Under the pieces are notes generated by a model that was not told where the DNA came from, did not search any database, and was given only the letters and a program-made list of their open reading frames with translations. Shown piece by piece: positions 16,399-34,167 of a stretch of DNA of 40,193 nt. The stretch's first letter is position 1; each line of letters begins with the position of its first letter. This stretch comes from Candidatus Magasanikiibacteriota bacterium. GTDB taxonomy: Bacteria; Patescibacteriota; Patescibacteriia; Magasanikbacterales; UBA922. The position numbers and the translations under genes are program-made. The stretch is taken from contig JACRPD010000023.1 of assembly GCA_016214105.1 (NCBI GenBank), positions 1 through 40,193 of the forward strand, in the 5' to 3' direction.

Positions 16399-17772
16399 TT
16401 ATACCACTTTCCCGCGTAAAACCCACGTATCCACCCAGTCTATTTTGACTGACACAATTTGACCAATCAAATCCGAGGCGCCGGGAAACTGGACCAGTTT
16501 CATCTCCGAAGAATTACCAAAACAAATATTTTTTTTGCGCTTATCAACCAACACGCTAACAGTTTGCCCGGAATACTTTTGATTTTTACGATGAGTCGTT
16601 TCTTCCATCAAATCCTGCACCGCCTGCCAGCGCTGTTTTTTGATCGCGCGCGGCACATCATCTTTGAACGCTTTGGCCGCGGCAGTGCCGGCGCGCTCGC
16701 TGTACTTGGCTTGATACGCGATATCAAAATCGCACTGGCGATATAAATCCAAAGTATTGTTAAATTGTTCGTCTGTTTCCCCGCAAAATCCAACGATTAA
16801 ATCCGTGCCAATGGCGATGTTCGGTCTGGCAACGCGAATTTTTTTAATTAAGTCAATGTAATACTCCCGCGTGTACTTGCGATTCATCTTGCGCAAAATT
16901 TCATTATCTCCGCTCTGAACCGGCAGATGCAGGTAATTAATTTGTTTTGGCAGTTTCAATGCCTCAATCTGCTCATCATTAAAATACTGCGGATCAGCCG
17001 CGGTCCAATGTATTCGTTCTAAACCATCAATCTGATTCACTTCCCACAACAACGCCGCAAAATCGTATGATGTCTCTGTAATCCCCGCTTTTTGTCTTGT
17101 CATCCCCGCGAAACTTGTCCCAGACTGTGATCGGGGAGCGGGAATCCAAAAATCGGACGCGTGGTAGTTATTCACCACCTGTCCCAACAAAACAACTTCT
17201 TTAATCCCGCTGGCAACCGCCTGTCTAATTTCCGCCAAAATATCCGCCACCGGCCGATTGCGCTCTCGTCCGCGCGCGTAGGGCACCGCGCAATAAGAAC
17301 AAAAATTATCACAACCGGTCTGAATCGTGATAGACGCGGAAATATTATTGGAACGCAAAGGGTCAACGCGCAAATAATCGCCCGGGTCGTCAAAATTGTT
17401 AGAAAATAAATCAAGATTAAGAGATAACAATCTTTTTGGCAATAAATTTAATTCATCAATCGGAAAAAATAAATCAACGCCCGGAAACTTTTTTCGCAAT
17501 TTCCCATCCTTATCGCGCCCAGGTAAACAGCCAGTAATACAAATAACTAGTTCCGGCTTGCGCTCGCGCAATTCCTGCCAATTTTTTACCACGCCAAATA
17601 CCCGATCTTCGGCTGACTGTCTAACACTGCAGGTATTAATTAATAGAACATCGGCTTCTTCAGCTTTATCAGTCATTTTCAAACCAACCGTGGACAACAA
17701 ACCGCTGATTCTTTCCGAATCGTTTTTATTCATCTGGCAACCGAGGGTGGTTATGTGATACTTTCTTGACAT
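16399..17772 (-). CDS. miaB: tRNA-i6A37 methylthiotransferase
   Basis: YHITTLGCQMNKNDSE and the radical-SAM motif CDNFCSYCAVPYARG, with a C-terminal TRAM domain. The ATG at 17772 is preferred because the ORF-track extension to 17901 runs through the leader hairpin. Confidence 0.93.
   Translation of the reverse strand: MSRKYHITTLGCQMNKNDSERISGLLSTVGLKMTDKAEEADVLLINTCSVRQSAEDRVFGVVKNWQELRERKPELVICITGCLPGRDKDGKLRKKFPGVDLFFPIDELNLLPKRLLSLNLDLFSNNFDDPGDYLRVDPLRSNNISASITIQTGCDNFCSYCAVPYARGRERNRPVADILAEIRQAVASGIKEVVLLGQVVNNYHASDFWIPAPRSQSGTSFAGMTRQKAGITETSYDFAALLWEVNQIDGLERIHWTAADPQYFNDEQIEALKLPKQINYLHLPVQSGDNEILRKMNRKYTREYYIDLIKKIRVARPNIAIGTDLIVGFCGETDEQFNNTLDLYRQCDFDIAYQAKYSERAGTAAAKAFKDDVPRAIKKQRWQAVQDLMEETTHRKNQKYSGQTVSVLVDKRKKNICFGNSSEMKLVQFPGASDLIGQIVSVKIDWVDTWVLRGKVV
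17077..17148 (-). repeat. In-frame GC-rich palindromic insertion inside miaB
   Basis: Encodes WIPAPRSQSGTSFAGMTRQKAGIT. On the minus strand, ATTCCCGC can pair with either of two GCGGGGAT copies. Locally GC-rich. Confidence 0.55.
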
Positions 17773-27465: not shown

Positions 27466-27469
27466 AGCT

Positions 27470-28621
27470 ATGAAGTATTTGTTCCAGCTCGGGCATCAAC
27501 CGCAAATTTCCGCCGCTGAAATAACAGCGGTTTTGTCACTTAAACATCCAAACATCAAAACACTTGCGCACTTGCGCACTTGCGCACTGAAACATCAAGA
27601 GGCTTTCTTAATTTTAGAAATAGACCAACAGTTAAATTGCGCAGATTTGATTGGAACCCTTGGCGGGACGATAAAAATCGCGCGGCAAATTGAAACGAGC
27701 ATTCCCGCGCATCTTAATCAAACCCAGCCGACCGGCAAAATCATTTTTTCTCTGCCGGACAAAACGCTGGCAATAAAAATTAAGAAAGAATTAAAGCAAT
27801 CCGGACGTTCGGTGCGTTATATTGAACCAAAAAATACCGCGACGATTTTGCATAACAATTTGGTTGAACTTGGCGGCGACCTGACAATCATCAATAACGA
27901 AATTTTCGCGACAGAAGCTATCCAGCCGTTTGAAGAATTCAGCCAACGCGATTATGGCCGACCAGGCAGTGATGACAGAAGCGGAATGCTGCCGCCTAAA
28001 CTGGCGCGTATTTTGATCAACTTGTCGCAAACGCCGAAAGACGCGACCCTTCTTGACCCATTCTGCGGCTCCGGCACTATCCTTACCGAAGCCTCAACGC
28101 TGGGCTATACAAATTTAATCGGTTCCGACATCAGCGAAAAAGCGATTAAAAATACTAAAGAAAATTTAGACTGGCTCGCCAAACAATTTAACAATTTAAC
28201 AATTCAACAATCATCAACTACTAAACTATTCCAAAGCGATGCCGCCAAATTATCAAATAAACTCCAACCACACTCTATTAACACCATCATTACCGAACCC
28301 CTCCTCGGCAAGCCGCTGACTGGCAGGGAAAATAAAGAACAATTGCGCTCCCAAGCCGACGAGTTGGCAAAATTATACATTGATTCTTTTAAAGCGTTCG
28401 CTAAAATTCTAAAACCTGACGGCGTGGTATTGTTTATCATTCCAAAATTCAAATTTAAAAACGAGTGGGTGGAGATTACTTGCGTGGAAGAAATAAAAAA
28501 GACCGGCTTTGCGGCCGTTCCATTTGAAATACTCGGCAGTTCACCTGTTGAGCATCTCGCCTACCACCGTCCCAATCAACATTTGGCGAGGACGATTTGG
28601 CGGTTTGTAAAAAATAGATAG
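27470..28621 (+). CDS. SAM-dependent RNA methyltransferase (UPF0020/Trm11-like)
   Basis: LLDPFCGSGTILTEA is a SAM motif I. ITEPLLGKP sits at the motif IV position. The ATG at 27470 is preferred over the start at 27422. Confidence 0.7.
   Translation: MKYLFQLGHQPQISAAEITAVLSLKHPNIKTLAHLRTCALKHQEAFLILEIDQQLNCADLIGTLGGTIKIARQIETSIPAHLNQTQPTGKIIFSLPDKTLAIKIKKELKQSGRSVRYIEPKNTATILHNNLVELGGDLTIINNEIFATEAIQPFEEFSQRDYGRPGSDDRSGMLPPKLARILINLSQTPKDATLLDPFCGSGTILTEASTLGYTNLIGSDISEKAIKNTKENLDWLAKQFNNLTIQQSSTTKLFQSDAAKLSNKLQPHSINTIITEPLLGKPLTGRENKEQLRSQADELAKLYIDSFKAFAKILKPDGVVLFIIPKFKFKNEWVEITCVEEIKKTGFAAVPFEILGSSPVEHLAYHRPNQHLARTIWRFVKNR
27542..27600 (+). repeat. In-frame unit-repeat tract: AAACATC flanks around (CTTGCGCA)x3
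   Basis: AAACATCCAAACATCAAAACACTTGCGCACTTGCGCACTTGCGCACTGAAACATCAAGA. It encodes KHPNIKTLAHLRTCALKHQE and contains three palindromic TGCGCA sites 8 nt apart. Confidence 0.75.
28181..28218 (+). repeat. In-frame CAATTTAA-unit tract (copy a)
   Basis: AAACAATTTAACAATTTAACAATTCAACAATCATCAAC encodes KQFNNLTIQQSS. Confidence 0.8.
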
Positions 28622-32132: not shown

Positions 32133-33518
32133 ATGCTCGGGTGGTTAATAACAATTTACGCTCTATTATTCGCCTTTCTAACTTGGCGTCGATTTGATGT
32201 CGCTTTAGCGATATTTTTCTTTGCCTTGCCCAGCTATCTTATCCGCTTTAACGTCGGCCATCTGCCGACTACGTTGTTGGAAATGATGTTTGGAATTATC
32301 ACTATTGACTGGGTTGTCAGGTATCATAAGCGGAACATGGCACATGGAACATGGAACATCCGCCGACACAAAACACTGTTCTGCGCAATCGCGCTATTTC
32401 TACTCGCCGCGACTGTCTCTGTTTTTAACTCGACCCATCTCCGCGCCGCGATGGGAGAATGGAAAACATTTTATGTTGAACCGATAGTCATGTTTCTAAT
32501 AATAGTCACGATGTCGCCACAACAATTTAACAATTTAACAATTAAACAATCCAAAAACTTTATAATTTTCGGTTTGGTGGCTGGCGGGTTGGTAACCTCG
32601 CTATTGGCGATCTACCAACACTTTACCGGCTGGATGGTGCCGGAAGCGTTTTGGGCTAATCAAAATACCTATCGCGCTACTGCGTGGTATGGGTTTCCAA
32701 ATGCGGTGGGATTGTTTTTAGCGCCGATTATTCCGTTTGCTGTATACTCAACCATTCAGACTTGGAAGAAAATACAGAGCCACAAACTTTCAGTCATAAG
32801 CCATAAGAAACTAAAACTTACGGCTTACGGCTTACGGCTTACGGCTGCAGTCTTAACTATACCCGCGTCCATCTTTGCAATTTACTTTGCCAAGTCAACA
32901 GGAGCATTAATTGGCCTCGCCGCCGGTTTATTATTTTTTCTTTTTTTCTACAATAAAAAATCTCGCCTTATTGTCTGCCTCGTAAGCCTTGTCGGCATTG
33001 TAAGCCTCGTAAGCCTCCCGACAAACAATCCAGTCAAACAAGAATTGCTGCTTCAAGACCGCTCCGGCCAAATTCGTCTGGGTATTTGGAATGAAACTTG
33101 GGAATTCCTAAAAGATAATCCGATCTTGGGCGCCGGCCTGGCTTCTTATCAAGAAAAAATTAAACCCTACCACACGACTGTCAACAACGAAAATATAGAA
33201 ATATTTCATCATCCGCATAATATATTTTTGACGATGTGGGTGAATTTGGGGTTGATGGGCTTAATTGGTTTTATCTTAATCATAATTTGGTTTTTCAAAA
33301 CATCGTGGAACAATTTAACAATTCTCCACCCGAGGCGGATCAGCCTTGGGCTGAAACAATTTAACAATTCAACAATTTATCTCGCCTCCTCAATGGTTGT
33401 CATCCTCGTCGCCGGGCTGGTGGATTCGCCTTACATCAAAAACGATTTGGCGATGTTGTTTTGGCTTCTGCCGGCGTTGTTGATTTTACAAAAAAATGGC
33501 GGAATTGTTCAAAAATAA
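32133..33518 (+). CDS. O-antigen ligase-like (Wzy_C) membrane protein carrying several in-frame repeat insertions
   Basis: Polytopic protein. HHPHNIFLTMWVNLGLMGLIGF matches the Wzy_C signature H.HN..L....E.G..G. Confidence 0.75.
   Translation: MLGWLITIYALLFAFLTWRRFDVALAIFFFALPSYLIRFNVGHLPTTLLEMMFGIITIDWVVRYHKRNMAHGTWNIRRHKTLFCAIALFLLAATVSVFNSTHLRAAMGEWKTFYVEPIVMFLIIVTMSPQQFNNLTIKQSKNFIIFGLVAGGLVTSLLAIYQHFTGWMVPEAFWANQNTYRATAWYGFPNAVGLFLAPIIPFAVYSTIQTWKKIQSHKLSVISHKKLKLTAYGLRLTAAVLTIPASIFAIYFAKSTGALIGLAAGLLFFLFFYNKKSRLIVCLVSLVGIVSLVSLPTNNPVKQELLLQDRSGQIRLGIWNETWEFLKDNPILGAGLASYQEKIKPYHTTVNNENIEIFHHPHNIFLTMWVNLGLMGLIGFILIIIWFFKTSWNNLTILHPRRISLGLKQFNNSTIYLASSMVVILVAGLVDSPYIKNDLAMLFWLLPALLILQKNGGIVQK
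32332..32361 (+). repeat. In-frame GGAACATG-unit tract
   Basis: GGAACATGGCACATGGAACATGGAACATCC encodes RNMAHGTWNI. Confidence 0.7.
32521..32550 (+). repeat. In-frame CAATTTAA-unit tract (copy b)
   Basis: AACAATTTAACAATTTAACAATTAAACAAT encodes QFNNLTIKQ. Confidence 0.8.
32793..32846 (+). repeat. In-frame CTTACGGC-unit tract with a local hairpin
   Basis: GTCATAAGCCATAAG, loop AAACTAAAA, then (CTTACGGC)x3.75. It encodes SHKKLKLTAYGLRLTA. Confidence 0.7.
32977..33018 (+). repeat. In-frame tract that is the imperfect inverted complement of 32817-32846
   Basis: GCCTCGTAAGCCTTGTCGGCATTGTAAGCCTCGTAAGCCTCC. CGTAAGCC is the reverse complement of GGCTTACG. Confidence 0.6.
33309..33380 (+). repeat. 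In-frame composite: two CAATTTAA-unit tracts (copies c1 and c2) flanking a small GC hairpin
   Basis: GAACAATTTAACAATTC at 33309-33325. Hairpin CCCGAGG-CGGATCAG-CCTTGGG at 33329-33350. AAACAATTTAACAATTCAACAATTTAT at 33354-33380. Confidence 0.8.
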
Positions 33519-34119
33519 ATTTCGTATCCCCTCCGCCCGATTGCCCGGTTACGATTACGGCCAACCGGGGTTTTATTTTGTCACAATTTGCGCGGAATTG
33601 CGGGTGTGTTATTTTGGCGATGTGTTGGATGGCGAAATGGTGTTGAATGATGCCGGAAAAATTGTTTTAAATGAATTATTGAAAACACCGCAAATCCGGC
33701 CAAATGTAACATTGGACGAATTTGTTGTTATGCCGAACCATTTACACATAATAATCATAATTAATGAAATCCGATCAACAACATCGGTGGCGGCGGGGTT
33801 GGTGGCGGAATCGGAATCGGTAGTAGAGACGCATTGCAATGCGTCTCTACACGAACGACCGCGCCATGATGACAAACCATACCACAACAAATTTGGGCCG
33901 CAACGAAACAATTTGGCATCAATCGTGCGCGGTTTTAAATCAACCACCACCAAACAAATCAATAAAAAATACGGTCACAAATATTTCGCCTGGCAATCGC
34001 GATTTTACGACCACATAATCCGCGACGAAATATCTTACAATAATATCCAATATTACATCCAACAAAATCCCGCCAAATGGTGGCGTGACCGGAATAATCA
34101 CGAGGGTTTGTTGATGTAA
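33496..34119 (+). CDS. IS200/IS605-family Y1 (HUH) transposase-like protein, RAYT-like
   Basis: HUH motif in VVMPNHLHIII. The C-terminal part AWQSRFYDHIIRDEISYNNIQYYIQQNP carries the catalytic-Tyr region. It overlaps the ligase 3' end by 23 nt. Confidence 0.8.
   Translation: MAELFKNKFRIPSARLPGYDYGQPGFYFVTICAELRVCYFGDVLDGEMVLNDAGKIVLNELLKTPQIRPNVTLDEFVVMPNHLHIIIIINEIRSTTSVAAGLVAESESVVETHCNASLHERPRHDDKPYHNKFGPQRNNLASIVRGFKSTTTKQINKKYGHKYFAWQSRFYDHIIRDEISYNNIQYYIQQNPAKWWRDRNNHEGLLM
33823..33850. repeat. Perfect 28-nt palindrome inside the transposase CDS (REP-like)
   Basis: GTAGAGACGCATTG|CAATGCGTCTCTAC, read in frame as VVETHCNASLH. Confidence 0.85.
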
Positions 34120-34128
34120 AAAAACAAA

Positions 34129-34153
34129 AGAGACGAAGCAGTGCCTCGTCTCT
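34129..34153. terminator. REP-like hairpin/terminator between the transposase gene and uvrA
   Basis: AGAGACGA (34129-34136) pairs with TCGTCTCT (34146-34153), followed by AC. It shares the (GT)AGAGACG...CGTCTCTAC arms with the palindrome at 33823-33850. Confidence 0.6.
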
Positions 34154-34167
34154 ACGAAATTAAACCT

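Follow-up and report, generated by a model that had tools for sequence, protein, structure and literature searches.

How does a repeat whose 8-nt unit brings a stop codon into every reading frame come to lie, in frame, inside intact genes? The question is raised by a 40,193-nt stretch of DNA (the window; contig C18) from an ultra-small Candidatus Magasanikiibacteriota bacterium of groundwater, whose genome assembly (GCA_016214105.1, here G000) comprises 840 kb in 84 contigs with 44% G+C. Two genes in the window, one for a methyltransferase and one for an O-antigen ligase-like membrane protein (the ligase-like gene), contain tracts of the unit CAATTTAA (Table 1). We found that these tracts belong to a mainly non-coding, genus-specific family of dispersed repeats. 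The protein loops that hold them appear, from comparisons of related genomes, to be rewritten fast with unrelated unit families or GC hairpins in congeners. The whole is probably best explained by genus-specific dispersed modules that reach tolerant loops by templated copying and are then sieved by purifying selection.

Tracts in the window

Table 1. Coordinates of the tracts, their host genes and associated features in the window
Feature	Position	Strand	Details
Host gene 1, Trm11/UPF0020-type S-adenosylmethionine (SAM) methyltransferase	27467..28621	+	intact open reading frame (ORF); Pfam PF01170, E=4.8e-14
Tract a	28181..28218	+	AAACAATTTAACAATTTAACAATTCAACAATCATCAAC; units CAATTTAA CAATTTAA CAATTCAA CAAT; read KQFNNLTIQQS
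Host gene 2, Wzy_C O-antigen ligase/polymerase-like membrane protein	32133..33518	+	intact ORF; PF04932, E=1.9e-24
GGAACATG-type unit tract within ligase-like gene	32332..32361	+	
Tract b	32521..32550	+	AACAATTTAACAATTTAACAATTAAACAAT; units CAATTTAA CAATTTAA CAATTAAA CAAT; read QQFNNLTIKQ
Inverted ACGGCTT / GTAAGCC unit tracts within ligase-like gene	32793..33018	+	
c1, 5' part of interrupted tract c	33309..33324	+	AACAATTTAACAATTC; read WNNLTIL
GC hairpin resembling repetitive extragenic palindromic (REP) sequences, doublet of small palindromes	33325..33354	+	30 nt, in frame, part of LHPRRISLGL
c2, 3' part of interrupted tract c	33355..33380	+	AACAATTTAACAATTCAACAATTTAT; read KQFNNSTIY
Y1 (IS200-like) gene resembling REP-associated tyrosine transposases (RAYTs), directly downstream of ligase-like gene	33496..34119	+	PF01797, E=1.2e-7
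Lone 13-mer, 1 mismatch	16755..16767	-	EQFNNTLDL within 503-aa ORF

A preliminary description of the window had reported four copies of the tract. Re-reading the sequences and their translations placed all four stretches where they had been located, inside two intact ORFs, and the codons that would be TAA in a perfect run are, as described, CAA in a, AAA in b, CTC in c1, and TAT in c2. The pattern is non-random, since the window matches CAATTTAACAATT eight times when up to one mismatch is allowed, where 0.50 matches are expected; a count of eight was reached in no shuffle out of 100. A fifth window match, the 13-mer at the foot of Table 1, looks like native coding sequence or chance and was rejected as a tract. 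It is true that all copies are read in the same phase, as had been noted, but this is forced by arithmetic and is no observation in itself: because the lengths of unit and codon, 8 and 3 nt, have no common factor, each of the three sense frames of (CAATTTAA)n runs through the same Q-F-N-N-L-T-I-stop cycle from a different offset, and a perfect run has one stop per frame in each 24 nt.

The four copies reduce to three sites. When the 30 nt between c1 and c2 (TCCACCCGAGGCGGATCAGCCTTGGGCTGA) are deleted in silico, the two parts join as a continuous 8-periodic tract, AACAATTTAACAATTCAACAATTTAACAATTCAACAATTTAT, which encodes WNNLTIQQFNNSTIYL; the boundary is ambiguous by 1 nt, and removal of 33324-33353 works equally. 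The joined tract is identical over 37 nt, irregular unit order included, to the tract of a gene for an FkbM-type methyltransferase elsewhere in the genome (C36:3922-3959). Thus, c1 and c2 make up a single tract into which a REP-like hairpin later came, and the CTC codon of c1 is an insertion junction and no substitution, because removal of the hairpin restores the tract. The two parts had been likened to a duplicated target around an inserted element; a target-site duplication was rejected, as the 16-nt direct repeat reflects the 8-nt period within the one tract. Many orthologues conserve the NN[L/S]TI[F/Y] end of c2 as a protein motif, which stands at the start of the last transmembrane helix, and one orthologue (L082) encodes it by different DNA (AACAACCTAACAATCTTC). 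The 3' half of c2 (NNSTIY) is either native protein or a former tract that is now kept at the level of the protein.

The hairpin is itself a member of a dispersed family, CCGCCYRAGGCGGAYCNGCCTYGGGCGG, with at least six full copies that form short imperfect palindromes arranged as an inverted doublet with a conserved G.T/A.C asymmetry. Copies lie on C4, C12, C36, and C49 (two), besides half copies, and copy number is low (about 6 to 10 per hairpin family). Hairpins interrupt tracts at other loci and in congeners as well. A hairpin of the same family occupies site b of the ligase-like gene of congener G002, flanked by TTTTCAA units; the tRNA-guanine transglycosylase gene (tgt) of G002 has a tract with a 40-nt hairpin, and that of G006 the same tract without it; and three genes of congener G001 have 21-nt hairpins inside their tracts, one of which, minus its hairpin, is exactly a b-type module. 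Ligase orthologues in other genera (L002:15385-16845, G009, and G013) have their own GC-rich hairpins, CCCCTCTGGCAGAGGGG and CCCCCCTCGAGGGGGG, flanked by those genera's own unit tracts at the same loops, so the tract-hairpin-tract architecture is general in the family.

The ligase-like gene is rich in such tracts. It holds at least five, of which Tandem Repeats Finder (TRF) counts four, a number tied for the genome maximum per gene. The GGAACATG-type unit family is the one that occupies site c in G001. An (ACGGCTT)x4 tract and its reverse complement, in GTAAGCC units, lie about 130 nt apart; the latter encodes LVSLVGIVSLVSL inside a predicted transmembrane helix, from which it follows that a unit tract can encode a membrane helix, and orthologues keep similar LVSLV repeats. 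The 5' region of the methyltransferase gene (window 27542-27600) reportedly also has an in-frame (CTTGCGCA)x3. Residues 32-43 there have a predicted local distance difference test score (pLDDT) below 50 in the AlphaFold2 (AF2) model, which is consistent with another tolerated insert.

A dispersed family with a stop filter on its coding copies

The preliminary description had taken the tract for a non-coding type of repeat, and a genome-wide inventory agrees. Tracts of at least two CAATTTAA units occur at 37 loci, 9 in genes and 28 intergenic or at gene edges, as judged against 797 genes called with our own rough ORF and codon-usage model. Besides the two window genes, the hosts include topA (topoisomerase I), tgt, an RsmI-like methylase gene, and the FkbM-type methyltransferase gene. 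Matches to the CAATTTAA pattern number 52 in G000, 27 in G001, and 21 in G002, fall to 0-5 in other genera of the family, and are absent from the nine other families of the order that we searched; the reversed unit is a rotation of CAATTTAA itself and so is invalid as a control for these counts. Overall richness in tracts varies patchily over the order.

This family is the most abundant of many. TRF found 810 non-redundant tandem repeats in the genome against 97 in a shuffled genome, at a density of 2.57/kb in intergenic and 0.67/kb in coding sequence. Non-triplet units arranged head to tail at many loci are typical, periods 7-9 dominate, and AAATTGTT (equivalent to CAATTTAA) is the top family. 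The coding repeats include 94 of period 7 and 70 of period 8. Non-triplet coding tracts, 115 in all, are found in 90 of the 797 genes (about 11%), far above the shuffled genome. The median tract length is 21-27 nt, independent of unit size. More than 100 families of 7-11-nt unit tracts are present in the genome, and the (CAATTTAA)n modules of 21-40 nt outnumber those of any other single family.

Intergenic spacers with a tract combine three or four different unit tracts in a mosaic, and the junction of a GCGAAAAT-type tract with a CAATTTAG tract is common to at least four intergenic loci. A composite of about 70 nt, ACATGCGAAATRCGAAAG.TTGCGAAAATGCGAACAA with a CAATTTAG/CAATTTAA tract, occurs in at least four spacers (C2:11045, C7:947, C39:1356, and C40:5539), in both orientations relative to the flanking genes, and C14:2803 and C42:2027 have a shorter GCGAAA-type lead-in to the tract. 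In some tract spacers, GC hairpins or terminator-like stems accompany the tract. A hairpin or terminator role of the intergenic copies was rejected, since several short spacers barely fold (folding free energy, dG, ~0 to -4), and a promoter or leader role was dropped for want of a consistent orientation or distance to gene starts. Clustering of copies was dropped as evidence of local hopping: three sites lie within 5.2 kb, and close pairs number about 12 against a rough expectation, worked out by hand, of about 8, in a genome that is fragmented.

Coding and intergenic copies differ in what they would encode. Among tracts of at least 24 nt, the sense frame is open in 6 of 6 coding copies and 4 of 15 intergenic ones (Fisher p=0.004). 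The stop filter on coding tracts is real, and to this extent the earlier claim that only stop-free variants persist in genes holds; in part it is tautological, because an intact ORF has no in-frame stop. The units themselves point the same way. CAATTCAA accounts for 7 of 25 coding and 3 of 74 intergenic units, CAATTTAG for 1 of 25 and 19 of 74, and TAATTTAA for 0 of 25 and 13 of 74; CAATTAAA makes up 3 of the 74 intergenic units. The substitutions seen in genes are therefore also found between genes, an outcome that the preliminary description had named as telling against stop avoidance, but the stop-free variants CAATTCAA/CAATTAAA are enriched about 7-fold in coding copies.

These variants were not made anew at each site. 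The stop phase is taken by CAATTCAA at site a and in the joined c tract, and also in three further genes, topA, tgt, and that of the FkbM enzyme; it is taken by CAATTAAA in site b, the ligase-like gene of G001, a second G001 gene, a methyltransferase orthologue (contig L001), and one intergenic copy. Because both are common to several loci and genomes, the sites were not rescued separately, and CAATTCAA and CAATTAAA are propagated variants of the family. This corrects the idea that each site acquired its own rescuing substitution. The four different stop-destroying changes had been read in that way, but two are the recurrent variants, CTC is the hairpin junction, and the 3' half of c2 lies on the native motif.

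Orientation is asymmetric. Inside genes, eight tracts are sense and one is antisense. Eight genes end in a stop codon that comes from a CAATTTAA tract, and all eight of these tracts are antisense (C2:11045, C28:2151, C42:2027, C49:11013, C72:31930, and three more); five of the eight genes end in (L/M/F)(L/F)NC followed by the stop. Stop-bearing copies lie between genes or at the extreme 3' end of a gene, which then takes its stop codon from the tract. The in-frame, stop-free state of the others implies, on the evidence of frame and stop statistics, that they are translated rather than removed.

Tolerant loops and their turnover

Alignments of 24 ligase and 22 methyltransferase orthologues place every tract site in a segment of variable length. 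The closest homologues of both host genes are named Candidatus Magasanikbacteria or Patescibacteria, and the orthologues of the first carry Magasanikbacteria methyltransferase names. Compared with the nearest orthologues that have no tract, the methyltransferase gains 7 residues at site a; at the DNA level, site b exceeds the plain loops of more distant genera by about 21 nt, and these genera have short plain loops at both b and c. In the AF2 models of the two host proteins, which have predicted template modelling scores (pTM) of 0.87 and 0.88, site a lies in loop 240-247 with pLDDT<50 at 244-246, site b in a short loop between helices 103-125 and 137-165 (block pLDDT 67), and the hairpin region of site c in loop 398-412 (pLDDT<50). 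Similarly, a loop of TopA has 11 residues more than its counterpart in PDB 6ozw, and this loop is plain in 14 other genera. The tract of Tgt spans about 9 residues, yet the segment exceeds that of 1ozm by only 4. Tgt (C68:2507-3820) has two more segments that are absent from solved Tgt structures, PLLVGEGQGEVSRDNSNNQAK and LPLVGLRRERSAERGGEEGVSTSVRGQ, which look like translated GC-rich hairpin insertions.

Since the sites are variable, low-confidence loops and distant genera are tract-free, the tracts are secondary to the genes. This had been proposed in the preliminary description, which had also suggested checking whether the insertions fall in loops; the models put all sites in low-confidence loops. 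In the tree for site a, the pair of G000 and P0123 is nested in a tract-free clade (100% support in the Shimodaira-Hasegawa-like approximate likelihood ratio test, SH-aLRT) and P0130 is sister to a tract-free protein (99%); the two separate placements require at least two gains. A near-identical site a tract (20/20 nt) is present in an orthologue of 59% identity (L002), and a CAATATAA version is present in L083. At site b, the tract is identical in G001 (29/29 nt) while the flanks differ. The tract peptide as a conserved motif in distant relatives, which would have counted against a secondary origin, is seen in part, in the NN[L/S]TI[F/Y] end of c2. The near-identical tract of the 59%-identical orthologue also weakens the original argument.

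What fills a loop changes even between close relatives. We compared G000 with 436 kb of G001, in which 33 coding sites of period 7 or 8 have a usable orthologue. The same or a related unit is found at 13 of them, another unit family at 12, a GC hairpin at 4, and nothing at 4. Replacement often preserves length (differences of 0, 0, 0, -3, -6, and -6 nt, and others). In the topA loop, whose flanks are about 90% identical, G000 has CAATTTAA-type units, G001 AAGTCCA-type heptamers, and G002 (AAGTCCG)x4; the tgt loop, with equally similar flanks, holds three different unit families in three congeners; and unit families also differ among congeners at site c of the ligase-like gene. Where the unit is retained, one site differs by exactly 24 nt, or three units (t11), and two show concerted unit changes (t4 and t16). 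Single-unit length differences are absent among the congeners compared, the only length change being that of three units. Contigs in Logan from three groundwater runs with the locus have no length variants, and these contigs break at tract b, which makes them unsuited to scoring polymorphism.

These comparisons bear on the view that the tracts are functional, either as phase-variation repeats in a surface-polysaccharide gene or as a selected peptide or DNA word. The ligase-like gene is a surface-glycan gene, a classic type of phase-variable target, and slippage by one 8-nt unit would shift its frame. Tract DNA is, moreover, better conserved than its flanks (sites a and b, above), and part of c2 is a conserved protein motif. 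But the same tracts occur in housekeeping genes that a cell could ill afford to silence, among them topA, tgt, and the RsmI-like gene; they have only 2-4 imperfect units; no congener differs by a single unit; and different unit families, hence different peptides, take the same loop in congeners, so that neither peptide nor DNA word is conserved over time. Phase variation of the tract-bearing genes is unlikely, and a functional motif or switch of any of these kinds strikes us as very improbable.

Proposed templated copying, its alternatives, and known repeat systems

Within the favoured explanation, we tentatively propose that an active and undescribed process of templated short-patch copy-over writes 21-40-nt modules and small GC hairpins into genes, essential genes included. 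Modules would be written into or over resident DNA by templated copying, through ectopic template switching or short-patch conversion, and either an existing tract or native CAAT(T/A)T-like codons would supply the short homology that seeds the copying. Outcomes that are out of frame, stop-bearing, or structurally harmful would then be cleared by purifying selection, and slippage or conversion within a tract could produce unit homogenisation and length changes by three units.

Several observations suggest copying. The b module, CAATTTAACAATTTAACAATTAAACAAT, recurs in the ligase-like gene of G001, in a second G001 gene (where a 21-nt hairpin interrupts it), in the methyltransferase orthologue on L001, and between genes at C68:4298. 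Identical irregular modules in unrelated genes, together with shared junctions and like-for-like replacement, argue for copying between loci as opposed to purely local slippage. That replacements keep length, and that Tgt gains 3-4 residues for a tract of about 9, favours copy-over above pure insertion. Finally, the tracts of tgt (Q-F), topA (Q-Y), and the ligase-like gene (NNLTIF) have native CAAT(T/A)T codons beside them, and in the methyltransferase a Q-Y seed is visible from protein alignments only; from these neighbours we infer that the copy-over is seeded by homology.

The same native codons would also serve a purely local microsatellite origin, in which a CAATTT or CAATAT word slips or duplicates in tandem in place and nothing is copied. 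Such an origin would accommodate the L083 tract, whose unit CAATATAA matches native CAATAT, the concerted unit changes at t4 and t16, the difference of exactly 24 nt at t11, and the absence of MutS from the whole genus. It is at odds with the presence of the same 8-mer at 37 loci, with modules of 28-37 nt that keep one irregular unit order in unrelated genes and genomes, with composite junctions common to at least four intergenic loci, and with the replacement of one unit family by an unrelated one at the same codon positions; in tgt, the last two bases of the unit (AA) mismatch the native continuation. Nor does MutS presence track tract density (Mann-Whitney p=0.16 across 19 sampled genomes). 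Loss of mismatch repair was rejected as the cause on this basis, and because G014 has both MutS and many tracts and several MutS-less genomes are without tracts. The MutS_V domain is absent in 34 of 41 genomes of the order (G000-G040), those of the window genus included, and present in seven genera of the same family. We consider an origin by local slippage alone improbable.

Several points weigh against templated copying. No donor-recipient event was caught and no enzyme was identified. CAAT is a common 4-mer in AT-rich DNA, and the seed pattern, with four cases, could be chance. The concerted unit changes, the 24-nt difference, and the L083 unit fit plain slippage. The 33 turnover sites were classed by eye, and the labels of a cruder script differ, for example giving some replacements as 'no_tract_similar_len'; the rough gene model may misassign some edge and intergenic labels and with them the orientation counts; and translation of the tracts is read from frame and stop statistics.

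The position of the Y1 gene raises another possibility, in which its RAYT-like transposase moves the tracts, with or without the GC hairpins, as non-autonomous miniature elements in the manner of REP sequences and their hairpin-forming doublets (REPINs). A Y1_Tnp-like gene with a faint Pfam match stands at the same position, directly 3' of the ligase gene, in the relative L002, and Y1 homologues occur in four of six tract-rich and one of 13 tract-poor sampled genomes, a correlation drawn from 14-80 kb sampled per genome. The 30-nt hairpin is built as a small imperfect palindrome doublet with G.T/A.C asymmetry as in REP and REPIN sequences (PMC3116915), and hairpin sites are found cleanly filled and empty, as in the tgt genes of G002 and G006 and at the precise 21-nt insert of a G001 locus. 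The unit tracts, by contrast, are non-palindromic and unfolded (dG ~0 for several whole spacers) and have neither target-site duplications nor terminal inverted repeats; G002 and G029 are tract-rich and lack a Y1 homologue; and the palindromes that flank the Y1 gene (GTAGAGACG...) form a different family of very low copy number. Those in and after the gene (GTAGAGACGC...GCGTCTCTAC) likewise belong to a family other than that of the site c hairpin, so the Y1 gene is not flanked by the family of that hairpin. A perfect palindrome, GTAGAGACGCATTGCAATGCGTCTCTAC, lies in the Y1 coding sequence with a related one just downstream (window 33496-34155), and about 3-4 of its half-sites are found genome-wide. 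Transposition of this kind seems to us less probable still than local slippage.

Templated copying thus remains the reading that we carry into a comparison with known systems. Our search of the literature found no description of in-gene translated repeats or dispersed heptamer repeats for the Candidate Phyla Radiation (CPR)/Patescibacteria, nor any pertinent paper on tandem repeats in Patescibacteria. If copy-over is true, it would be a new mutational mechanism in the most reduced genomes of free-living type, and ultra-small genomes would have in it a new source both of mutational load and of fast change in protein loops. It would also explain many odd low-complexity inserts that complicate the annotation and structure prediction of CPR proteins, and would provide genus-specific sequence tags. 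The interest lies mainly in the turnover and its bearing on mechanism.

[quoted passage not shown] Like them, the tracts form a dispersed family whose members lie between genes and also, in frame, within housekeeping genes unrelated to one another, to which they add a family-specific peptide, and they occupy fold-tolerant sites. Unlike RPEs, they are direct tandem runs of 21-40 nt with no palindrome or fold, so the palindrome of ~100-150 bp and the terminal inverted repeats of that class are lacking; and many unit families coexist, with one family standing in for another at a given site from congener to congener.

Dispersed heptanucleotide simple sequence repeats (SSRs; short tandemly repeated repetitive sequences, STRRs), such as GGGAATC in Xanthomonas, GGGGAYT in Nostoc, and those of Calothrix, are biased to non-coding DNA, under-represented in coding sequence, and linked to G-quadruplexes; many of them stand no more than 50 bp from the end of an ORF, and a stop codon may fall inside the repeat (PMC4692102). 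The tracts described here share with them a short non-triplet tandem unit at many loci, a preferred small copy number, and frequent closeness to ORF ends. Their density is higher in non-coding DNA, although coding tracts are far more numerous than in a shuffled genome, and the eight genes with a stop inside a tract recall the overlap with stop codons. They differ in being AT-rich, in occurring in 11% of genes, essential ones included, and in having genus-specific units that turn over.

The hairpins invite comparison with REP/REPIN-RAYT systems (PMC3116915), as a tiny imperfect palindrome doublet of a dispersed family next to a RAYT-like gene. REP sequences are extragenic by definition, whereas several copies of the CCGCCYRAGGCGGAYCNGCCTYGGGCGG family, that of site c included, lie in frame within ORFs; the hairpins are also of low copy number and differ in family from the palindromes that flank the RAYT-like gene. 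Since palindromy and an extragenic location fail, the tracts and hairpins are not members of the RPE or REP families. The hairpins here insert into unit tracts, a feature to be set beside both REP/REPIN and the small dispersed repeats (SDRs) of Nostoc. According to Elhai et al. 2008, the Nostoc SDRs are reportedly embedded in tandem heptamer repeats.

With contingency loci, finally, the tracts have in common a non-triplet repeat in a surface-polysaccharide gene; they differ in their 2-4 imperfect units, in their presence in essential genes, and in showing no single-unit variation among relatives. What goes beyond these known repeats is the number of non-triplet unit families (more than 100), their spread through about one in nine genes, those for topoisomerase I and tRNA-guanine transglycosylase among them, and the turnover by which about half of the coding sites carry another unit family or a hairpin in a congener.

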